Origin: Candidatus Levybacteria bacterium RIFCSPHIGHO2_02_FULL_40_18
Lineage (GTDB): Bacteria > Patescibacteriota > Microgenomatia > Levybacterales > GWA1-39-11
Direction: 5' to 3'
Assembly (NCBI GenBank): GCA_001782235.1
Contig: MFOC01000007.1
Span: forward strand, 251,909 to 315,908
Length of the DNA stretch: 64,000 nucleotides
Shown here: positions 6,090-60,678 of the stretch, piece by piece
Layout of the letters: each line of letters begins with the position of its first letter
Position numbering within the stretch: the stretch's first letter is position 1
The notes under the pieces: model-generated
Databases searched by the model: none
The model's input: the letters and a program-made list of their open reading frames with translations, nothing else
What the model was told of the DNA's origin: nothing
Program-made: the position numbers and the translations under genes

Positions 6090-6167
6090 GAAGTTAGGAC
6101 TAAAGGAATTAGTGATTAAGATTTTGACTGATTACTTTAGTCTTTTATTCTTTTAATCTTAAGAGAT

Positions 6168-7151: not shown

Positions 7152-7157
7152 CCCAAG

Positions 7158-7301
7158 ATAATAGTTATAAGAAAATAGAAATTAGTAATAGAAAATGCCT
7201 GCCTGCCGGCAGGCAGGGAGAATAGAAAATAGTTAAACAAAAAAAACAAATTTCCAATTTCTAATTTCCATTACTATTTTCCAATATCTAACAACCAATT
7301 T
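7158..7301. repeat. MITE-like inverted-repeat element, copy A (carries the nested 20-nt palindrome)
   Basis: Shares the arms GAAAATAG..GAAATTAGTAATGGAAA and CCAATTTCCAATATCTAATTTCCATTAC with copies at 18014, 41558 and 44491. Confidence 0.6.
7198..7217. repeat. 20-nt perfect GC-rich palindrome CCTGCCTGCCGGCAGGCAGG (copy 1)
   Basis: Identical to 10195-10214. Here it sits inside the MITE-like element. Confidence 0.8.
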
Positions 7302-7325
7302 CTGATTGAATTTTGGATTTGATTT

Positions 7326-7334
7326 TGGTAAAAT
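7326..7334 (+). promoter_or_regulatory. extended -10 (TGG-TAAAAT) upstream of rpsO
   Basis: TGnTAAAAT motif that recurs before many genes in this window. An 88-nt leader with direct repeats follows. Confidence 0.4.
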
Positions 7335-7421
7335 ACAAACTCAGCGTCTAGTAAGGAGCGTCTAGGGTCTAGTTTAAATAAAAACTGAACGCTAAACGCT
7401 AGCTACTAAACGCTTCGAAAT

Positions 7422-10194: not shown

Positions 10195-10214
10195 CCTGCC
10201 TGCCGGCAGGCAGG
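10195..10214. repeat. 20-nt perfect palindrome CCTGCCTGCCGGCAGGCAGG (copy 2), immediately after the pnp stop
   Basis: Identical to 7198-7217. Possible terminator-like hairpin, but no U-tract follows. Confidence 0.8.
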
Positions 10215-10253
10215 GTCTTGTCCGCCCTAAAATTTTAGTGTTATACTTTTTGT

Positions 10254-11426: not shown

Positions 11427-11491
11427 AGTTTAGCTTTTGGCGCTTGGCGTTTAGCTAATAGCTAACAGCCAATGGCTAATGGCAAAATATT

Positions 11492-13315: not shown

Positions 13316-15403
13316 ATGGCAAGACGGCATTATAAGAGAAGGCATATTTTCAAATTAAGGCTTAGAAAAACCACAATTTATACTCTTTTTTCGATTCTCT
13401 CGATTGCCGCGAGCGCAGTTTTATTTGCTTCCTATACGCAAAGTAACGAAATACTTTCTGACATAAACCTTTATTTAACTTCATATTTTGGATGGCTTTC
13501 ATTCCTTATTCCCGTGAACATAATTTTATTCGGTCTGCTCCTGACTCGGATAAGGTCCTCATTCACCCGGGCAAATGTTTTTTTTGGATTTGTACTTTTG
13601 TCTATTGCGCTATCAGGGTTCTTTCAATCAGGTTTTGCCGGGCAACAAATTTTTGAGGTGGCAGTTTCTATTTTCGGAACCGCGCTTTCTATCATATTCT
13701 TTATTGCGGCTATTTTAGTTGGGCTGGTTGTATTTTTGAATCTTTCTCTTTCTCAGGTTTTTGAGGTGGTCACGTCCTCAATTAAAGGTACATTTCTTGT
13801 AGGCAAGAAGCTTGCACCTTTGTTTAAGTCTAAAAAACAGCCTGGCGTATCTGATATGCAGCAGATCACAATTAAAGGGCTCAAAGAGCCTATTCGAGAA
13901 GAACTTCCCAAGCAGCTGCCAAAACCTCTCGGGAAGAAAGAAATGGCGGACGAATTGGTTTTAAACAAGCCTCTTGAAATGGGAGTGTGGGAATATCCGC
14001 CCTTGTCACTTCTTTCGGTGCATGCGGGAAGGCGCGATACGGGAGACGTGAAGCAAATTGCAGGAAAAATTGAAGAGACGCTTCAGTCCTTTGGGATAAA
14101 AGGCCGTGTTTCCGAGGTTAATATAGGGCCTTCTGTTACCCAATATGCCTTAGAGATTGCTCAAGGTACAAGGCTTTCAAAGATTACGGCACTTGCAAAT
14201 GACTTGGCACTCCGAACAGAAGCACCAACCGGTCAAATAAGAATTGAGGCCCCAATTCCCGGACGAAATCTAGTAGGAATAGAAATTCCAAATAGATCTC
14301 TTGAGATCGTCTCCCTTAAGAATATGCTAGCATCAGATCCGATGGAAAAGACAAAATCAAAGCTTTCGGTGCCGTTAGGTCTTGATGTCTCGGGCAATAC
14401 TATTGTTGCCGATATTGCGAGAATGCCGCATGTTTTAATAGCAGGAACAACAGGTTCCGGAAAGTCAGTTTTAATAAATGCAGTAATCTCGACAGTTTTG
14501 TTTCGAGCATCGCCTTCAGAAGTTAAGCTTATACTTATAGATCCAAAAAGGGTAGAATTGACGGCATATTCCGGAATTCCTCACCTTTTAACCCCCGTTG
14601 TTGTTGAAGTAGAAAAAGCAGTTTCGGCTCTGAAATGGGCGATGAAAGAGATGGATCGTCGATATGTTCAGTTTCAAGACTCGGGAGTTAAAAACATTGA
14701 TTCATATAATGAACTTGCGGGATTTCAGGCACTCCCTTATATCGTAATCTTAATTGACGAGCTTGCCGATTTGATGTCTCTTGCCCCGGTTGAAGTTGAG
14801 GATACGGTTGCCCGCTTAGCGCAAATGGCACGTGCCACCGGTATTCATCTGGTTTTGTCAACCCAGCGGCCTTCAGTCGATGTTTTAACAGGTTTAATTA
14901 AGGCTAATATTCCATGCAGAATTTCATTTAATGTGTCATCCATGGTTGACAGCAAAGTTATTATTGATCAGTCGGGTGCCGAGAAACTCTTAGGTCGCGG
15001 AGATATGCTTTACGTTCCGCCTGATCAAGCAAAACCAACTAGAATTCAAGGGACTTTTGTGTCAGAGCAGGATGTAAAGCGCGTTGTAAACTTTATTAAA
15101 TCACGCGGAATTCCGGTCCAGTACACGAGAGATGTAGTAGAACAGCAAGTTAATCTAAAGCGAGGATTTGGCAGGACTAGTGACGGAGGCCGAGATGATC
15201 TTTTTGAACAAGCGGTAAGAATTGTTTGCGCACATGACAGGGCCTCTTCATCACTTCTTCAGAGAAGATTATCTATTGGTTTTAATAGGGCGGCGCGAAT
15301 TCTTGAGCAACTTGAAGAAGCAGGAGTTGTTGGTCCGGGAGAAGGTTCAAAACCAAGAGACGTTTTGATTCGTGATCCCGAGCAATTCCTTGCCCAACAA
15401 TAA
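13316..15403 (+). CDS. ftsK: DNA translocase FtsK/SpoIIIE
   Basis: N-terminal TM helices, Walker A AGTTGSGKSV and a C-terminal gamma winged-helix. Start moved to MARRHYK (13316) because of the adjacent -10. The track start at 13220 is probably an over-extension. Confidence 0.8.
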   Translation: MARRHYKRRHIFKLRLRKTTIYTLFSILSIAASAVLFASYTQSNEILSDINLYLTSYFGWLSFLIPVNIILFGLLLTRIRSSFTRANVFFGFVLLSIALSGFFQSGFAGQQIFEVAVSIFGTALSIIFFIAAILVGLVVFLNLSLSQVFEVVTSSIKGTFLVGKKLAPLFKSKKQPGVSDMQQITIKGLKEPIREELPKQLPKPLGKKEMADELVLNKPLEMGVWEYPPLSLLSVHAGRRDTGDVKQIAGKIEETLQSFGIKGRVSEVNIGPSVTQYALEIAQGTRLSKITALANDLALRTEAPTGQIRIEAPIPGRNLVGIEIPNRSLEIVSLKNMLASDPMEKTKSKLSVPLGLDVSGNTIVADIARMPHVLIAGTTGSGKSVLINAVISTVLFRASPSEVKLILIDPKRVELTAYSGIPHLLTPVVVEVEKAVSALKWAMKEMDRRYVQFQDSGVKNIDSYNELAGFQALPYIVILIDELADLMSLAPVEVEDTVARLAQMARATGIHLVLSTQRPSVDVLTGLIKANIPCRISFNVSSMVDSKVIIDQSGAEKLLGRGDMLYVPPDQAKPTRIQGTFVSEQDVKRVVNFIKSRGIPVQYTRDVVEQQVNLKRGFGRTSDGGRDDLFEQAVRIVCAHDRASSSLLQRRLSIGFNRAARILEQLEEAGVVGPGEGSKPRDVLIRDPEQFLAQQ

Positions 15404-15473
15404 CAAATAGCTAAAATAGCTACATGGCTGCATGGTTTCAAAACCATTCTAACCATTTTAACCATGTAACCAT

Positions 15474-16112: not shown

Positions 16113-16223
16113 GTTATAAGTTTTAAGTTGTAAGATGTAAGTAATTTCTTAAATCATAAATCTTACATCTTAGATACTAACTTCATTCTTGCTTTTAAGC
16201 TTATTTCGTGATAATTTAGTAGC

Positions 16224-16872: not shown

Positions 16873-16967
16873 TTAAAATAGCTGAATAGCTACATGGCTT
16901 TTAACTATTTAACCATCCTAGCCATTTTAGCCATTTATCTTTGTCTTTGGTATAATACCCTCTATCC

Positions 16968-17954: not shown

Positions 17955-18013
17955 ACAAGAAAACGAAGGCAGCAGAGATTACCGGCAAATAAATTTGAAA
18001 CAGGAAATCGGCT

Positions 18014-18138
18014 TAGAAAATAGTTATTAGAAAACAGAAATTAGTAATGGAAAGTAGAAAATAGAAAACAGTTTTAAGGAGCCAATTTCCAATATCTAAT
18101 TTCCATACCATTTTCCAATTTCTCATAACCAATTTCTT
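18014..18138. repeat. MITE-like inverted-repeat element, copy B, ending 3 nt before the nth ATG
   Basis: Same arms as copies A, C and D. Confidence 0.6.
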
Positions 18139-18140
18139 CA

Positions 18141-18782
18141 ATGGATACTAAGATTAAAGCGCTAAGGATTACTCGTGAATTAAAAAAACTTTTTCCTACC
18201 ACAAAGACTGCATTAGAATATAAAACAGCTTTTCAATTATTGGTTGCGGTTGTTTTATCAGCGCAGACGACTGATAAAAAAGTAAACGAGGTAACTTCAC
18301 GCTTGTTCGCTAAGTTTAAGACAGCGCAGGACTTTTCGAAACTCTCTCAATCAGAACTCGAACCGTATATAAAAAGCATTGGCCTATATCGCGGGAAGGC
18401 AAAAAATATAATTGCGGGGGCAAAAGTTATTTCGGAGAAATACGACGGTGAAATTCCTCGTTCGATGAAAGAAATGACAGCGCTTCCTGGGGTGGGACGC
18501 AAAACCGCAAATGTTGTTTTGGGAATGGTTCATGGTGTGGTCGAAGGAATTGCGGTTGATACACATGTTCGTCGCCTTGCTCAGTTGTTCGGCCTCTCGA
18601 AAAGTTCGAATCCCGACATTATAGAACGCGATCTTATGTCGATTCTCCCAAAAAAAGAATGGCGGGAATTCACATTTCGCATGATCGACTATGGCCGCAA
18701 ATATTGCCCCGCCTCCTGCAAACATATAAACTGCCCACTTCGAAAATATATTACTCGTTACTCGACTCGAGAGCGAGAGTAG
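18141..18782 (+). CDS. nth: endonuclease III (HhH-GPD DNA glycosylase)
   Basis: HhH motif LPGVGRKTANVVL. C-terminal Cys cluster CPASCKHINC has only 3 Cys visible. Confidence 0.8.
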   Translation: MDTKIKALRITRELKKLFPTTKTALEYKTAFQLLVAVVLSAQTTDKKVNEVTSRLFAKFKTAQDFSKLSQSELEPYIKSIGLYRGKAKNIIAGAKVISEKYDGEIPRSMKEMTALPGVGRKTANVVLGMVHGVVEGIAVDTHVRRLAQLFGLSKSSNPDIIERDLMSILPKKEWREFTFRMIDYGRKYCPASCKHINCPLRKYITRYSTRERE

Positions 18783-19584
18783 GTGGGAAGCTAATCCACC
18801 CTCCAGGTGTACTAGCTTGACACCCTTTCTTTTTTCCTGCAAACTCTATATATGGCAACCAATAGGCGCTTGGTGTTTAGCAACGGATACATCTATCATA
18901 TCTTTAATCGCGGCATAGATAGACGCAGCGTCTTCACGGGATTTCGGGAATACTTAAGAGCACAAGAGTTAATAGAGTTTTATAAACATCTCGAAACCCC
19001 CGTAAGATATTCAAAATTTCTGCAACTGTCGAAAAGTCTCAGAGATGATGTGTTAAGAGAGATTAATAAGAGCGAGACACAGGTTGATATTTTAGCCTAT
19101 TGTCTTATGCCAAATCATTTTCATTTTATGCTCCAGCAAAAGGTAGACAAAGGGGTCTCTACTTTTATTGCAAACTTTACGAACGCTTATACAAGGTATT
19201 TTAATACTAAGCATGAGAGGATAGGCCCCATGTTTGAAGGAATATTTAAAGCTGTGTTAGTTGAAAGCGATGAACAATTAATTCATCTCTCTCGGTATAT
19301 ACACCTCAACCCGGTTGTATCAAGTATTATTAACGAATCAGACCTCAACAATTATAAGTGGTCTTCGTATCATGAATATATCGCCCCCTCAAAAAACAGC
19401 ACCGTTTCTAAGAGGGATCTGGTTATGTCAATGTTTGAATCTGCAAAACATTACGAGAAATTTGTTCTTGATCAAATTGAATATGGTAAGAAACTCGAGA
19501 TAATCAAGCATTTAACATTAGAATAGTCGCGTTTAAATAAATGAGGTAAAGAGTATGTGGCAAGCTAATCCACCCTCCAGGTGT
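18783..19584 (+). mobile_element. IS200/IS605-family-like insertion (tnpA only) bounded by 28-bp direct repeats
   Basis: GTGGGAAGCTAATCCACCCTCCAGGTGT at 18783-18810 and GTGGCAAGCTAATCCACCCTCCAGGTGT at 19557-19584 (27/28 identical). Each carries short hairpin potential. The repeats flank a Y1 HUH transposase gene, and the left one starts 1 nt after the nth stop. Confidence 0.6.
18852..19526 (+). CDS. tnpA: Y1 HUH transposase (IS200/IS605 TnpA / RAYT-like)
   Basis: HUH motif YCLMPNHFHFML, catalytic Tyr motif YIHLNPV and N-terminal YHIFNRG. Confidence 0.7.
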   Translation: MATNRRLVFSNGYIYHIFNRGIDRRSVFTGFREYLRAQELIEFYKHLETPVRYSKFLQLSKSLRDDVLREINKSETQVDILAYCLMPNHFHFMLQQKVDKGVSTFIANFTNAYTRYFNTKHERIGPMFEGIFKAVLVESDEQLIHLSRYIHLNPVVSSIINESDLNNYKWSSYHEYIAPSKNSTVSKRDLVMSMFESAKHYEKFVLDQIEYGKKLEIIKHLTLE

Positions 19585-21589: not shown

Positions 21590-21670
21590 ATCAAAATGGT
21601 TACAATAGCTAGAATAGTCAAAATAGTTCAAAACATGTAGCCATTTAGCTATTTTAGCTATTTTAATTTT

Positions 21671-24759: not shown

Positions 24760-24963
24760 ATGGAAGAAGTCTCTTTTGGTCTTACTGACCAGGATCTGAA
24801 AAATCAAAAACTAAAATCAATATCTTCGACGATCAAAAATTTCCTGACATTGATTGGCCCAACAGTCATTCGCTGGGTCAATATTATAATTTACTACGTT
24901 ATTAAATTCATAAGAGCGGTTGTGGTAAACGTAATCCGAATGATACTAGGCAAAGAAGTCTAA
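24760..24963 (+). CDS. small hydrophobic protein
   Basis: 67-aa ORF with a TM-like C-terminal half. Confidence 0.3.
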   Translation: MEEVSFGLTDQDLKNQKLKSISSTIKNFLTLIGPTVIRWVNIIIYYVIKFIRAVVVNVIRMILGKEV

Positions 24964-25050
24964 TAAGTTTGTAAAGTTTATAAAGTTTTTAAGGTTTATA
25001 AAGTTATACTTTAAGAACTTTACGAACCTTATGAACCTTAAGAACTAATT

Positions 25051-26357: not shown

Positions 26358-26414
26358 ACTTCGCTTGCAGGCGGGCTCCCTCACTTCATTCAGTCCGCCC
26401 CTCGGGGGTGGACT
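26358..26414. repeat. GC-rich intergenic repeat copy 1, with a 10-bp-stem hairpin at 26392-26414
   Basis: CTTGCAGGCGGGCTCCCTCACTTCATTCAGTCCGCCCC. Second copy at 39851-39896. Hairpin is AGTCCGCCCC-tcg-GGGGTGGACT. Confidence 0.6.
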
Positions 26415-26419
26415 GATTG

Positions 26420-26428
26420 TGGTAAAAT
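26420..26428 (+). promoter_or_regulatory. extended -10 TGG-TAAAAT 13 nt upstream of the mltG GTG start
   Basis: Recurring TGnTAAAAT motif. Confidence 0.45.
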
Positions 26429-26441
26429 ACGTTTTAGTTAC

Positions 26442-27383: not shown

Positions 27384-27540
27384 CTTAGCTATTAGCTTTT
27401 GGCTGTTGGCTTTTAGTTTGGGGCTTGACAAACCCTTGGGGTAGGTATATAAATGATAAAACCTTGTTAATGCGAGGAGGTATTTTTTTACCTTTCCTCT
27501 TTTTTTGCGTAAAACAAGCATCTTCTAGAATTTATTTCTG

Positions 27541-30951: not shown

Positions 30952-30954
30952 AAA

Positions 30955-30996
30955 ATCGGGGCCCCCATTTTGCTTGCCAAAATGGGGAAAAACATT
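30955..30996 (+). promoter_or_regulatory. conserved hairpin element (copy 1) immediately upstream of the rpoC start
   Basis: AATCGGGGCCCCCATTTTG-cttgc-CAAAATGGGGAAAAACATT. 10-bp stem with a G-rich 3' arm 9 nt before the ATG. Confidence 0.55.
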
Positions 30997-34767: not shown

Positions 34768-34927
34768 TTACTAATTAACCTAATCAATCCCCAATTTAAA
34801 AAATTCCCAATTGTTTAGAAATTAGGAATTAGGTCAATTAGACAATTTGCAAACTATACTGCACAACGGAGGAATTAAGGATAGATAGCTAGTAATTTAG
34901 GGAAAAATGAGGTAAAATACGTCAATT

Positions 34928-37514: not shown

Positions 37515-37578
37515 AGGCGGATTATAGCTGTTCGATAGGACTTAGGGCAAGCATAGGATTGCAGGAGGAGTGTTTTTT

Positions 37579-37587
37579 TGGTAAAAT
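37579..37587 (+). promoter_or_regulatory. extended -10 TGG-TAAAAT upstream of fusA
   Basis: Recurring motif, with a ~45-nt leader to the likely start. Confidence 0.4.
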
Positions 37588-37632
37588 AGCTTGATCTGTT
37601 GGAAAGGCAGCAGATTTTTTTTGACCAAAATT

Positions 37633-39850: not shown

Positions 39851-39896
39851 CTTCGCCCTTGCAGCCGGGCTCCCTCACTTTGTTCAGTCCGCCCCC
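39851..39896. repeat. GC-rich intergenic repeat copy 2
   Basis: CTTCGCCCTTGCAGCCGGGCTCCCTCACTTTGTTCAGTCCGCCCCC. About 85% identical to 26358-26401. Confidence 0.6.
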
Positions 39897-41498: not shown

Positions 41499-41557
41499 CC
41501 CTTCGCACAAATCCTAAGCACTAAATCCTAAATTCTAAATAATATATCAATATATAT

Positions 41558-41640
41558 TTAGAAAATAGTTATTGGAAAATGGAAATTAGTAATGGAAATA
41601 TGGAAAATAGAAAATAGTTAAAATAAAAATACCAATTTCT
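41558..41640. repeat. MITE-like element copy C (left arm plus truncated right arm)
   Basis: TTAGAAAATAGTTATTGGAAAATGGAAATTAGTAATGGAAA...CCAATTTCT. Confidence 0.55.
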
Positions 41641-41676
41641 TATTGACAGAATTTTGGTATTCGAATAAAGGATTTG

Positions 41677-41685
41677 TGTTAAAAT
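41677..41685 (+). promoter_or_regulatory. extended -10 TGT-TAAAAT 9 nt upstream of the murB ATG
   Basis: Recurring motif. Implies a near-leaderless mRNA. Confidence 0.45.
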
Positions 41686-41694
41686 CAGAGCGTT

Positions 41695-44490: not shown

Positions 44491-44620
44491 TTAGAAAATA
44501 GTTATTAGAGAATGGAAATTAGTAATGGAAATTTGAAAATAGAAAATAGATAAAAACACCAATTTCTAATATCTAATTTCTATTACCATTTTCTTACTTC
44601 TTACAACCATTTTCTATTTT
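44491..44620. repeat. MITE-like element copy D, ending 6 nt before the next ATG
   Basis: Both arms present. Confidence 0.6.
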
Positions 44621-51061: not shown

Positions 51062-51143
51062 AATTATTGATTATTTATTATAGATTATAGATTATTGTTC
51101 GAACAAATAATAAATAATAAACAATAAATAATATATAAAAAAT

Positions 51144-51431: not shown

Positions 51432-51512
51432 GGCAAATGGTTAAAATGGCTGCATGGCTACATAGCTTTAAAACCATGCAACCATGTAACTATTTAACTA
51501 TTTAAATTTAAT

Positions 51513-52593: not shown

Positions 52594-52616
52594 CAGCTAG
52601 CTGTTGGCTGTTGGTA

Positions 52617-52657
52617 GTTAGCTAATAGCCAAACGCTAAAAGCTAACAGCTGAAATT
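52617..52657 (+). promoter_or_regulatory. conserved leader module upstream of rplP
   Basis: GTTAGCTAATAGCCAAACGCTAAAAGCTAA(C)AGCT, near-identical to 53586-53627. Confidence 0.5.
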
Positions 52658-53313: not shown

Positions 53314-53562
53314 ATGGCTAAAAAGACTTTTATCGGAAAAGTAGTATCTAACAAGATGCAGAAGACTGTGATTGTTCAAATTGAGCGATTGGTTCGACAC
53401 CCAGTTTACAAGAAAATCCTTAAAAGAACAACAAAAATTAAGGCTGACACTAATAATTTTGAAGTCGGCACTGGTCAGTCTGTGAAGATAGAGCAAGCAA
53501 GGCCAATGTCTCGTGATAAACATTTTAAGGTGGTAGAGGTGCTAAATGAGGAGAAAAAATAG
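53314..53562 (+). CDS. rpsQ: 30S ribosomal protein S17
   Basis: Typical S17. Confidence 0.9.
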   Translation: MAKKTFIGKVVSNKMQKTVIVQIERLVRHPVYKKILKRTTKIKADTNNFEVGTGQSVKIEQARPMSRDKHFKVVEVLNEEKK

Positions 53563-53585
53563 CCCTTGGCTATTGGCTGTTGGCA

Positions 53586-53627
53586 GTTAGCTAATAGCCA
53601 AACGCTAAAAGCTAATAGCTAAATAAT
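53586..53627 (+). promoter_or_regulatory. conserved leader module upstream of rplN (near-identical to 52617-52657)
   Basis: GTTAGCTAATAGCCAAACGCTAAAAGCTAATAGCTAAATAAT. Confidence 0.5.
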
Positions 53628-54403: not shown

Positions 54404-54517
54404 ATGAAAGTACAAGCTTCAGTTAAAAAAAGATGTATAAAATGCAAAATTATTAGAAGGCACGGCAAGCTTTATGTGATCTGTGATAATCCAAAACATA
54501 AGCAGCGCCAAGGCTAA
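54404..54517 (+). CDS. rpmJ: 50S ribosomal protein L36
   Basis: 37 aa, [37 protein letters not shown], with the C-x2-C-x12-C-x4-H zinc ribbon. Not in the ORF track. Unusual position between rplX and rplE. Confidence 0.85.
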
Positions 54518-54556
54518 GCTAGGAACTAGCAACTAGCAACTAGTGACTAGGAGTAT

Positions 54557-55097: not shown

Positions 55098-55286
55098 ATG
55101 GCAAAGAAGTCAAATATACAAAAAAATTTATACAAGAAGCCAAAATACAGCACTCGAAAGAAAAATATCTGCAGGATCTGTGGAAGATCACGCGGGTATT
55201 TGAGATTTTTTGGCATGTGCAGAATTTGTTTTAGGGAACATGCCCTGAAAGGAGAACTTCCAGGAGTCAAAAAGGCGTCTTGGTAA
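55098..55286 (+). CDS. rpsN: 30S ribosomal protein S14 (Zn-ribbon type)
   Basis: 62 aa with CRICGRS..CRIC Cys4. Start at MAKKSNIQK. Confidence 0.9.
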
Positions 55287-55345
55287 ATAGCTATTGGCCG
55301 TTAGCTATTAGCTAATAGCCAAAAGCCAAAAGCAAATAGGCAAAT

Positions 55346-56670: not shown

Positions 56671-57129
56671 ATGGAAGATCAAATATTGAATCAAAATCAG
56701 GAAAAGCTTGAGGAAAAAGTTGTTCAGGTAAACCGGGTCTCAAAGAAGACTAAGGGCGGAAATAAAATGAGATTTACCGCTTTGGTAGTTGTTGGCAATA
56801 GAAATGGAAGAGTAGGGGTAGGTCTTGGAAAGTCTGCTGATGTTTCATCGGCGATTATAAAAGCAGTAACATACGCGAAAAAAAGAATGATTGATGTTCC
56901 CATCACAGACGGTACTATACCTTACTCAATAAGGATTAAAAAAGGTGCAGCCGAGGTGCTTCTTAAACCTGCACCGGCAGGTACAGGAATTATTGCAGGA
57001 GGCGCTGTCAGATCTGTTGTTGAGGCGGCTGGAATTAAAAATGTTTCGTCAAAAATATTGGGGTCTGACAATAAAGCAAGCAATGTTTATGCAACTTTTG
57101 AAGCCCTCCAAAAGTTAGCAGCAAAATAA
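56671..57129 (+). CDS. rpsE: 30S ribosomal protein S5
   Basis: Typical S5. Only 45 nt separate it from rplO, so no L30 gene is present. Confidence 0.95.
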   Translation: MEDQILNQNQEKLEEKVVQVNRVSKKTKGGNKMRFTALVVVGNRNGRVGVGLGKSADVSSAIIKAVTYAKKRMIDVPITDGTIPYSIRIKKGAAEVLLKPAPAGTGIIAGGAVRSVVEAAGIKNVSSKILGSDNKASNVYATFEALQKLAAK

Positions 57130-57131
57130 TC

Positions 57132-57174
57132 GGGGCCCCCATTTTGCATCGCCAAAATAGGGAAAACAAAAAAT
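57132..57174 (+). promoter_or_regulatory. conserved hairpin element (copy 2) upstream of rplO
   Basis: AATCGGGGCCCCCATTTTGC-atc-GCCAAAATAGGGAAAACAAAAAAT. Confidence 0.5.
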
Positions 57175-58892: not shown

Positions 58893-58959
58893 TATAGAGT
58901 ATTGCGTATTGAGTATCGAGTATCGAACAAACTGAATACTGTATGTAGAATACTGATTT

Positions 58960-60606: not shown

Positions 60607-60635
60607 TCCCAGCAAAAAGCCATATTGCGACAGAA

Positions 60636-60678
60636 ATCGGGGCCCCCATTTTGCTTCGCCAAAATGGGGAAAAACATT
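60636..60678 (+). promoter_or_regulatory. conserved hairpin element (copy 3) upstream of rpsM
   Basis: AATCGGGGCCCCCATTTTG-cttcgc-CAAAATGGGGAAAAACATT. Confidence 0.55.

Follow-up and report, generated by a model that had tools for sequence, protein, structure and literature searches.

Gene-less palindromic heptad elements between the genes of a Levybacteria genome, probable miniatures of an intervening-sequence-type PF05635 cassette

A stretch of 64,000 nt from the genome of Candidatus Levybacteria bacterium RIFCSPHIGHO2_02_FULL_40_18, a groundwater bacterium from Rifle (contig MFOC01000007.1, positions 251,909 to 315,908 of the forward strand; hereafter the window), contains four related inverted-repeat sequences in the spacers between its genes. 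A first, sequence-only reading described them as copies of an element resembling miniature inverted-repeat transposable elements (MITEs), all located in the 5′ regions of genes, and suggested that they supply promoter or leader sequences. What kind of element are these repeats, and do they serve the genes beside them? With a probability of about 0.72, the evidence indicates that they are miniatures without an open reading frame (ORF), belonging to a family of palindromic cassettes of the intervening sequence (IVS) type that is spread through the Candidate Phyla Radiation (CPR).

The window repeats comprise three full copies and one half copy of an imperfect palindrome of about 125 nt, all on the + strand. 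Copy A (7156-7303, full length by alignment; left arm approximately 7156-7233 and interrupted, right arm approximately 7247-7303) lies between a 327-aa ORF and the rpsO promoter, and scored 82.3 on the + strand against 67.9 on the - strand in nhmmer. Copy B (18014-18137, full length, 99.1 bits) is located between the cofD-like and nth genes, and copy D (44492-44616, full length, 100.0 bits; arms 44492-44545 and 44563-44616) between the thioredoxin and DsbD/CcdA-thioredoxin genes. Copy C (41559-41640) is a half copy, retaining the left arm and only the initial CCAATTTCT unit of the right arm, whose remainder has been deleted. In the window, eight matches to a 17-nt core were counted where dinucleotide shuffles predict 0.65, and three to a right-arm motif of 25 nt where the shuffles have none. 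Copies A, B and D fold as long imperfect hairpins with arms of about 55 nt (-24.5 to -31.5 kcal/mol, z of -3.9 to -5.1 relative to dinucleotide shuffles; -31.5 kcal/mol and -5.1 for copy A). Copy C forms no hairpin (z = +1.5), because only the left arm and the first right-arm unit remain. The copies are 82-148 nt long, contain no ORF and number four per 64 kb, while other loci hold up to three per 4-14 kb. The sequence-only reading was therefore accurate, within a few bases, about the places of the four copies, and also about their inverted arms, their lack of coding capacity and the truncation of copy C. As it also stated, the nth ATG begins 3 nt past the end of copy B, and this start codon is backed by orthologues that begin with MDTKIKA or MDKKQKA. 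The distance from copy D to the downstream ATG was given as 6 nt, which holds for the boundary used there; by our boundary it is 10 nt.

The consensus of the element is (T)AGAAAWTRGTTRT-TWRGAAAATRGAAATTAGTAATRGAAAWTNGAAAATRGAAAATAG, a loop, and CYAATTTCYAATWTCTAATTTCCATTACCATTTTCYAATTTCTAAYAACYAATTTCT(A), with (T)AGAAAWTRGTTRT and AYAACYAATTTCT(A) as terminal inverted repeats. An arm consists of some eight consecutive 7-nt units of the form RGAAAWT (GAAAWTR heptads; hereafter the GAAA family), and the irregular units GTTRT and GTAAT occupy fixed positions in every copy. C is absent from the left arm and G from the right arm. In a column-by-column pair table built by hand from 30 full copies, Watson-Crick pairs made up 72% of the cells over 57 positions, the right arm being approximately the reverse complement of the left. 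Every heptad had an invariant G-C pair, three A-T pairs, a conserved A.A (or T.T) mismatch, a T-A pair, and an R.Y position varying without compensation (e.g. columns 41/95: AC 15, GT 9, GC 3, AT 0). No compensatory changes were present in this table, and RNAalifold detected no consensus structure in the alignment produced with the profile hidden Markov model (HMM). The + strand has 117 A.C mismatches but only 66 G.U pairs, and a strand-specific RNA on the ORF-sense strand is therefore unsupported. It is the heptad sequence that is conserved, not base pairing. The window had no match in Rfam 15 at the gathering score, and copy D searched at E<=10 gave chance microRNA-type hits only (E>=1); a scan of the window for tRNA and tmRNA genes found none. 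Arm identity was 0.81 within a genome and 0.76 between genomes.

In metagenome loci, the same two arms occur 370-450 nt apart around one ORF of about 134 aa starting with MENSKNKTIKSFRDLHVYQNLYK... (loci are cited below by their L numbers). This full-length form of about 520-550 nt is composed of a left arm of about 60 nt, a gene of about 134 codons and an inverted right arm of about 60 nt. The ORF was found between the arms in 12 loci, nine derived from the arm pattern and three from the protein; the pattern-derived long forms are L076, L080/L155, L099, L107, L156, L157, L090 and L011. An HMM of the long-form ORFs also finds those of L090 and L011, next to arms, and a frameshifted copy in L080/L155. 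The ORF's start codon falls within the final left-arm heptads (GAAAATGGAAAATAG = M E N S), and the right arm begins right after the stop codon. The encoded protein matches Pfam PF05635, the protein of 23S rRNA intervening sequences, with 55-59 bits (cut-off 33.8), as well as NCBIfam TIGR02436 (“four helix bundle protein”) and PDB 2GSC, the solved pentameric four-helix-bundle protein XCC0516. Its subfamily comprises 625 clusters at E<=1e-10, of which the best 120 are all 68-100% identical. All three homologues chosen by the protein alone (L163, L165 and L167) proved to be flanked by GAAA-family arms and to lie between ordinary protein genes, and L163, from a metagenome-assembled genome (MAG) of Saccharimonadales, has in addition a short copy 1 kb away.

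Over their whole length, the window copies can be aligned with the two arms of the long form, a loop of 5-15 nt taking the place of the ORF, and are therefore regarded as miniature gene-less derivatives; judged from this alignment, the short form is the long form minus its gene. In a set of roughly 175 elements, no longer form with these arms was found other than the one encoding PF05635. The ORF is under purifying selection (dN 0.1-0.3, dS saturated, dN/dS of about 0.07-0.3 where computable). Arm identity, measured over a crude window that includes some flank, is 0.65 against 0.51 for codon third positions, and the arm sequence is therefore constrained too.

An exact scan of 185,579 reference genomes with the left-arm core (20 specified bases) retrieved 45 stretches, about 38 of which are complete homologous elements that match outside the pattern as well. 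Their hosts are labelled Woese-, Levy-, Curtiss-, Lipton-, Falkow-, Buchanan- or Saccharibacteria or unclassified Patescibacteria; a few host MAGs are labelled “Gammaproteobacteria”, Methylomirabilis or TA06, and in these cases mislabelling is suspected. The same core retrieved at least 99 stretches from metagenome contigs, and nhmmer applied to the metagenome stretches listed gave at least 126 elements, at least 71 of them full length. A scan of viral contigs yielded one match only, a chance match inside a coding sequence, and hence no sign of phage carriage. Relative to co-directional flanking genes, 17 elements of the genome set have the same orientation and 19 the opposite one; for the metagenome set the counts are 16 and 12 (total 33 and 31). 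Across the family, the median gaps to the flanking ORFs are 3 and 5 nt, the element occupying the entire junction. Our literature search found no earlier description of this family, of MITEs in the CPR, or of CPR heptamer repeats or heptad hairpins. The GAAAWTR family is new as a version of an already known kind of cassette, namely the IVS type with PF05635. Truncated copies (L019 and others) were considered as a hidden autonomous element and rejected: L019 is a truncated arm, and its TAG is the stop codon of the upstream ORF. One ORF-bearing GAAA cassette (L169; ERZ28563803 scaffold_34058, protein P0312) comes from the same Rifle assembly as L003 (scaffold_62), the scaffold of the window.

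These counts bear on the possibility that the copies are merely AT-rich, low-complexity spacers that look alike by chance. The arms are indeed rich in A and T and internally repetitive. However, the shuffle controls do not reproduce the matches, the order of regular and irregular heptads (GTTRT and GTAAT included) is identical in more than 100 copies from dozens of genomes, and the arms are co-linear with the long forms. The likeness goes beyond low complexity, and we give chance practically no weight.

Orthologous sites reveal how copies come and go. Syntenic loci were taken from sister Levybacteria whose Nth and MurB proteins are 76-82% and 78-85% identical, respectively, to those of the window. 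At the B site, the spacer between cofD and nth measures 186 nt in the window, with the element, against 0 nt in L052, 5 nt in L053 and -1 nt in L054, all of which are empty; in L051 it measures 73 nt and holds a different heptad hairpin. At the D site, the thioredoxin and DsbD-like genes overlap by 4 nt (ATGA) in L055 and lie 2 nt apart in L058, both being empty, and in L056 they are separated by 125 nt with another hairpin family. Comparison with empty orthologous sites, which the sequence-only reading had suggested, was thus possible for copies B and D. The C site, upstream of murB, is filled in L055 and L057 and empty of the GAAA element in L056 and L058. In L055 (sister genome JACQKO01, the closest relative, with a MurB identity of 85%), a complete element occupies this position and shares the right flank, TATTRACAGRATTTTGGTATTCGAA. 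Therefore, copy C was inherited from the common ancestor; the deletion of its right arm in the window falls between two CCAATTTCT repeats. Copy C is enclosed by an outer heptad hairpin of an AAATCCT family, formed on the + strand by an inverted repeat at 41506-41536 and 41648-41678. In L056 this outer hairpin is intact without the GAAA element, and copy C must therefore be nested in an older hairpin. The element at the C site of L057 is in the reverse orientation (81.7 bits against 55.8 in nhmmer), which suggests an independent insertion. Together, these sites show that copies are gained at very short gene junctions inside operons, that they are inherited vertically and then decay, and that they nest in other hairpins just as other elements nest in them. 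As a separate observation, the 59 nt at 17955-18013 between the cofD stop codon and copy B contain GATTACCGGCAAATAA, similar to the 3′ end of cofD in relatives (AATAATCGGCAAATAA in L051); this stretch may be a relic gene-end duplication produced at insertion.

Such behaviour recalls a classical MITE, that is, an internally deleted insertion sequence (IS) that is moved by cut-and-paste by a conventional transposase (DDE or other) encoded elsewhere and leaves target-site duplications. The elements are small, non-coding and multi-copy, possess terminal inverted repeats, occupy filled sites opposite empty ones, occur in both orientations, nest, and derive by deletion from a longer form that carries an ORF between such arms; to this extent the term “MITE-like” was appropriate. 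TA is the commonest end dinucleotide (about 35% of copies at each end), which is compatible with the TA duplication of IS630/Tc1-type elements, but TA flanks are uninformative because TA also extends the palindrome. Beyond a possible TA, no consistent direct repeat was found when 36 full copies were tabulated together with the filled/empty pairs; copy D has TTTTT or TATGA on both sides, whereas copy B has no such repeat. The check for target-site duplications proposed in the sequence-only reading thus brought out no consistent one. The longer relative with the same ends encodes PF05635 (TIGR02436) as its sole ORF rather than a recognised transposase. Copies within a genome are barely more alike than copies from different phyla, unlike those of a recent burst, and the arms are more conserved than the synonymous sites of the associated ORF. 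A classical MITE is therefore an unlikely description of the family.

Could the copies instead be host regulatory elements that give promoters, leaders or terminators to the downstream genes? They end 3-10 nt before start codons, their hairpin is stable, and Shine-Dalgarno sequences are largely missing from this genome, so that the sequence upstream of a start codon might matter. Moreover, the ends are symmetric, and ...AACYAATTTCTA therefore precedes the start codon whichever the orientation. That all four lie in 5′ regions is true but uninformative: the flanking genes of all four copies are co-directional on the + strand and, across the family, the element fills the whole spacer, so that each copy is equally 3′ of the upstream gene and 5′ of the downstream gene. 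No sigma-70-like site was found in any right arm, nor any promoter-like site within the arms. The promoter-like site of rpsO (TTGAAT-17-TAAAAT with an upstream TG, 7306-7334) begins 3 nt past copy A, and the likely -10 element of murB, read from the sequence as TGTTAAAAT, is located downstream of copy C. The stems are not followed by a T-tract and are therefore not terminator-like. Sister species do without the element at the B and D sites, where the junctions measure 0-5 nt or overlap; other species hold different hairpin families at the same junctions; copy C has lost a whole arm; the genes supposedly served are unrelated; and orientation is random. The supply of promoters finds no support in these data, and a host regulatory role in general appears highly improbable.

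The B and D junctions overlap or abut in sister genomes, which indicates operons, and copies B and D should therefore be transcribed in polycistronic RNA. The copies join the intercistronic leader merely as a consequence of the place of insertion. Since they are dispensable in sister species and copy C has decayed, the window copies are most likely selfish passengers with at most a modest effect on their neighbours. Between the rpsO promoter-like site and the rpsO ATG there is a separate heptad-like hairpin, AGCGTCTAG...CTAAACGCT (7340-7415), which may be an S15 autoregulatory leader or simply another hairpin element. Elsewhere in the window, extended -10 motifs of the form TGnTAnAAT (e.g. TGGTAAAAT and TGTTATACT) stand about 7-15 nt before start codons (10228-10253, 16940-16967, 26420-26441, 34905-34927, 37575-37590 and 41676-41694). 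Shine-Dalgarno sequences being largely absent, the picture suggests that many mRNAs of this genome are leaderless or have very short leaders.

The GAAA copies are not the only heptad structures in the window. Most spacers of at least 35 nt contain a heptad-periodic imperfect hairpin or a tandem 7-nt array, with cores that differ from family to family (TTAGCTn/TTGGCTn, AAATAGC/ACATGGC, AGTTATA/AGTTTTA, GAGTATT and others). They are located at 6090-6167, 11427-11491, 15404-15473, 16113-16190, 16873-16940, 21590-21670, 24960-25050, 27384-27416, 34768-34850, 51062-51143, 51432-51512, 52594-52657, 53560-53627, 54515-54556, 55281-55345 and 58893-58959. In spacers without GAAA copies, autocorrelation at lags 7, 14 and 21 was 0.32, 0.31 and 0.31 against about 0.27, while coding sequence displayed only period 3. 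In four sister genomes the same junctions are either empty or occupied by genome-specific heptad families. These other spacer hairpins are probably gene-less remnants of other cassette families.

The same periodicity might point to a function at the DNA level, in which the heptads are arrays of protein-binding sites (like iterons bound by ribbon-helix-helix proteins) with a nucleoid or segregation role, their inversion being incidental. The strict 7-nt period, the invariant G and AAA of each unit, the preservation of sequence over pairing, the conserved mismatches and the autocorrelation peaks of the intergenic DNA all agree with this idea, which overlaps with a part of the mechanism that we propose below. 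However, a single genome contains many different heptad sequences, which would each call for a binding protein of their own. The copies are also dispensable between sister species, and their consistent partner is the PF05635 gene inside the arms, a better fit to a binder encoded by the element than to a host function. A host-serving array of this kind is quite improbable.

The resemblance to rRNA intervening sequences is closer. Classical IVSs of 23S rRNA, known since about 1990 together with their S23p/PF05635 ORF, are stem-loops with complementary ends that are excised by ribonuclease III (RNase III); some of them carry the ORF, and they are thought to have spread horizontally. Those of Leptospira, Coxiella, Brucella and Xanthomonas have in common with the present family the complementary termini and long stem (in the window, copies A, B and D), the optional ORF of about 130 aa for a four-helix-bundle protein (in the family, not in the window copies), the existence of short versions without the ORF, and a sporadic distribution suggestive of horizontal spread. 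Heptamers also stand by the ORF start in both, GACAGAT in Coxiella and GAGGACG/GATGACA in Azospirillum, as compared with GAAAWTR here, where the ATG falls in the last heptads. They differ in that rRNA IVSs reside in helix 25 or 45 of 23S rRNA, whereas the window copies lie between protein genes, are present in multiple copies (four per 64 kb) and have distinct GAAAWTR arms. Among the loci only L008 has a 23S gene, and its element is outside that gene. As no sampled copy resides in rRNA, “IVS” is used here as the name of an architecture, not of a location.

Heptad arms were also found around PF05635 genes of other taxa. A tblastn search of plasmids with the CPR protein gave no match at E<=1e-5; when relaxed to E<=5, it gave eight weak matches, seven of which are annotated as “four helix bundle protein” or “S23 ribosomal protein”. 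Seven of the eight PF05635-like plasmid genes are bracketed by heptamer arrays. On Nostoc plasmids (L159, L161 and L162) the arrays are (GGGAAAA)n, (GGGTGTR)n and (GCAGGGA)n, and a Geminocystis plasmid (L176) likewise has a four-helix-bundle gene with heptamer arrays. The gene of a Picosynechococcus plasmid (L174) is located between cas10 and cmr3, and that of a Pseudanabaena plasmid (L175) between cas6 and cas4, with arrays of 14 and 10 units. The cyanobacterial genes all sit between co-directional genes, and their arrays are inverted in five cases and direct in L175. Plasmid AZO_p2 of Azospirillum lipoferum 4B (L173), the source of the eighth match, has an unannotated PF05635-like ORF at 14086-15045 with arms of GAGGACG/GATGACA heptads; its flanks are what we take to be 23S rRNA around helix 45, in which case it would be a classical IVS. 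Similar arms, of GAAGACR/AACAGAT heptads, surround the PF05635 gene located between pnp and lon in the Levybacteria locus L052 (1881-2252, - strand). In Coxiella, the IVS is removed by RNase III and carries GACAGAT heptamers in tandem immediately ahead of the S23p start (PMC4990558), and insertions in the 16S and 23S rRNA genes of CPR bacteria are reported to contain 23S_rRNA_IVP ORFs (10.1101/2024.02.27.582315). The presence of heptad arms around PF05635 genes in these taxa argues for one cassette type across CPR, Cyanobacteria and Proteobacteria. The GAAA family is one version of this inverted-heptad PF05635 cassette, and the plasmid arrays link cyanobacterial heptamer repeats of the short tandemly repeated repetitive (STRR) type to such cassettes.

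A broader reading may be considered, in which heptad hairpins are the footprint of one wide, unrecognised class of mobile cassettes with a PF05635/Avd-like gene as the sole gene. Its protein would bind the arms of its own element, with co-variation between arm families and protein subfamilies, and would help the cassette and its gene-less derivatives to be copied or inserted at rRNA helices and at the junctions between genes. Excised hairpin RNA and a reverse transcriptase could provide the route for the copying, in the manner of Avd in diversity-generating retroelements. PF05635 is regarded as a homologue of Avd, the accessory protein of these retroelements (PMC10053308). If this reading were true, 23S rRNA IVSs, CPR spacer hairpins, a large share of the cyanobacterial STRR load and the four-helix-bundle genes within CRISPR-cas loci would be one phenomenon; and if arm recognition were specific, arms and proteins would be congruent, with GAAAWTR accompanying the MENSKNKTIKSF... 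subfamily and GAGGACR the Azospirillum/L052 type. We regard so broad a class as a tentative idea, doubtful at present yet worth stating. In the sister Levybacteria locus L054, a bAvd gene stands beside a reverse transcriptase gene (18484-19519), forming a diversity-generating retroelement some 1.2 kb downstream of yceG, where synteny with the window ends; it bears on the speculative reverse-transcriptase route for Avd-like cassettes.

Among known small repeats, the enterobacterial repetitive intergenic consensus (ERIC), or intergenic repeat unit (IRU), reportedly treated by Hulton in 1991, De Gregorio in 2005 and Wilson and Sharp in 2006, is a 127-bp imperfect palindrome of transcribed intergenic regions in enterobacteria and vibrios. 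It resembles the CPR element in size, in being an imperfect palindrome over its whole length, in occurring in either orientation and within operons, in being present or absent between relatives, in its puzzlingly high conservation across hosts and in having no known transposase. Unlike the CPR element, ERIC is not known to have heptad periodicity or an ORF-bearing parent, and a sequence relation is not expected. The Correia/NEMIS elements of Neisseria and the Nezha elements of cyanobacteria are likewise miniature, non-coding, co-transcribed MITEs with inverted ends and many copies near genes, and Correia stems are cut by RNase III. The CPR element differs from both by the lack of a clear target-site duplication and by a parent without a recognised transposase. 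The cyanobacterial STRR heptanucleotide repeats, reportedly noted by Mazel in 1990, are also tandem 7-nt units in spacers. Intergenic TAACTGA heptamer repeats occur in Beggiatoaceae, Cyanobacteria and Bacteroidetes (PMC4679880). Both kinds often lie just upstream of start codons in Shine-Dalgarno-poor genomes, as here, and their distribution across phyla hints at horizontal spread. However, they were described as direct arrays without an associated gene, whereas the present arms are inverted and surround, or derive from, a PF05635 gene. Repetitive extragenic palindromic (REP) doublets forming hairpins (REPINs) and their REP-associated tyrosine transposases (RAYTs) are comparable as dispersed intergenic hairpins that persist for long and accompany a single repeat-flanked protein gene (PMC3116915). 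They consist, however, of two 20-30-nt REP units with a Y1 (IS200-like) transposase, as opposed to heptad arrays of 55-60 nt with PF05635; the elements fall outside the REPIN/RAYT definition by their arm-flanked PF05635 gene, although no search for Y1 transposases was made in the loci. The tandem interspaced guide RNA (TIGR)-Tas arrays were considered since they occur in CPR. They are defined by tandem 36-nt units with two spacers, box C/D-like motifs and a Nop-domain Tas gene, and were ruled out because the repeat period is 7 nt, because each copy is a lone, dispersed hairpin that is conserved from genome to genome, and because neither box C/D motifs nor a neighbouring Tas gene are present.

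How, then, might the gene-less miniatures of an IVS-type cassette behave in the cell? The hairpin would be co-transcribed with the flanking genes, and, by comparison with rRNA IVSs and Correia elements, RNase III could plausibly act on its imperfect stem of about 55 bp. The enzyme would then cut the polycistronic RNA between cistrons. The heptad arms may be recognised as sequence by the cognate four-helix-bundle protein, and the spread or upkeep of the short copies would depend on protein supplied in trans by an intact one. A part of the PF05635 protein in mobility is conjecture.

Several points weigh against the miniature-cassette reading. We know of no demonstrated activity of PF05635 proteins. 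The 64-kb window contains no intact cognate PF05635 gene and no rRNA, and no sampled copy lies inside an rRNA gene. The 36 full copies whose insertion sites were inspected show no consistent target-site duplication. The stem is mismatched about every 7 nt, which might lower cutting by RNase III. As the loci were collected through an exact 20-nt core, the apparent conservation of the left arm is inflated. Finally, the S23p protein of Coxiella is probably not even made (PMC4990558).

The family nevertheless offers many independent copies, long and short forms, filled and empty sites, and a conserved protein paired with a specific heptad arm. The relationship between protein and arm thereby becomes directly testable, with respect to the mobility of 23S rRNA IVSs and the role of PF05635. 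Decayed hairpin cassettes could account for a large part of the non-coding DNA in a streamlined CPR genome, and the origin of cyanobacterial heptamer repeats gains a concrete lead. In practical terms, the elements break metagenome assemblies and cause over-extended ORF calls. For example, the murB ORF of L057 was called at 374 aa because it had run into the element, its true length being about 319 aa with a start about 55 codons later.

A second, independent mini-repeat is nested in copy A. The perfect 20-nt GC palindrome CCTGCCTGCCGGCAGGCAGG (7198-7217) is inserted in its left arm, and copy A is longer than the other copies for this reason. The palindrome is missing from L042, the nearest relative of copy A, which reads ...GGAAAATG|GAGAATAG... 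at this point. A second window copy is located at 10195-10214, and further ones are scattered over unrelated CPR genomes (L017 4093, L029 2039, L051 20159, L086 2794, L116 4424, L119 10597 and L148 270). Nesting in a GAAA element has occurred on at least two independent occasions, once in the left arm of copy A and once in a right arm in L086, and the L029 copy falls within an ORF, coding for LPAGRAGLPAGRQG. The palindrome may be likened to the very small mobile repeats described in cyanobacteria. Short GC-rich hairpins of other kinds, CCGCCAAAGGCGG... and CGCCAAAGGCGCAAGCTCGGC, adjoin or lie within GAAA arms at about 10090-10120 in L057 and about 3432-3452 in L165.

Other small repeats of the window are found in spacers apart from the GAAA copies. 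The repeat AATCGGGGCCCCCATTTTGC..GCCAAAATGGGGAAAA, which on the + strand forms a hairpin followed by A's, has three window copies (30954-30992, 57128-57166 and 60635-60673), at sites after rpoB and within the ribosomal-protein cluster. Two more GC-rich spacer repeats occur in two copies each, 92-94% identical, at 26364-26401 and 39858-39895 and at 18776-18810 and 19550-19584.

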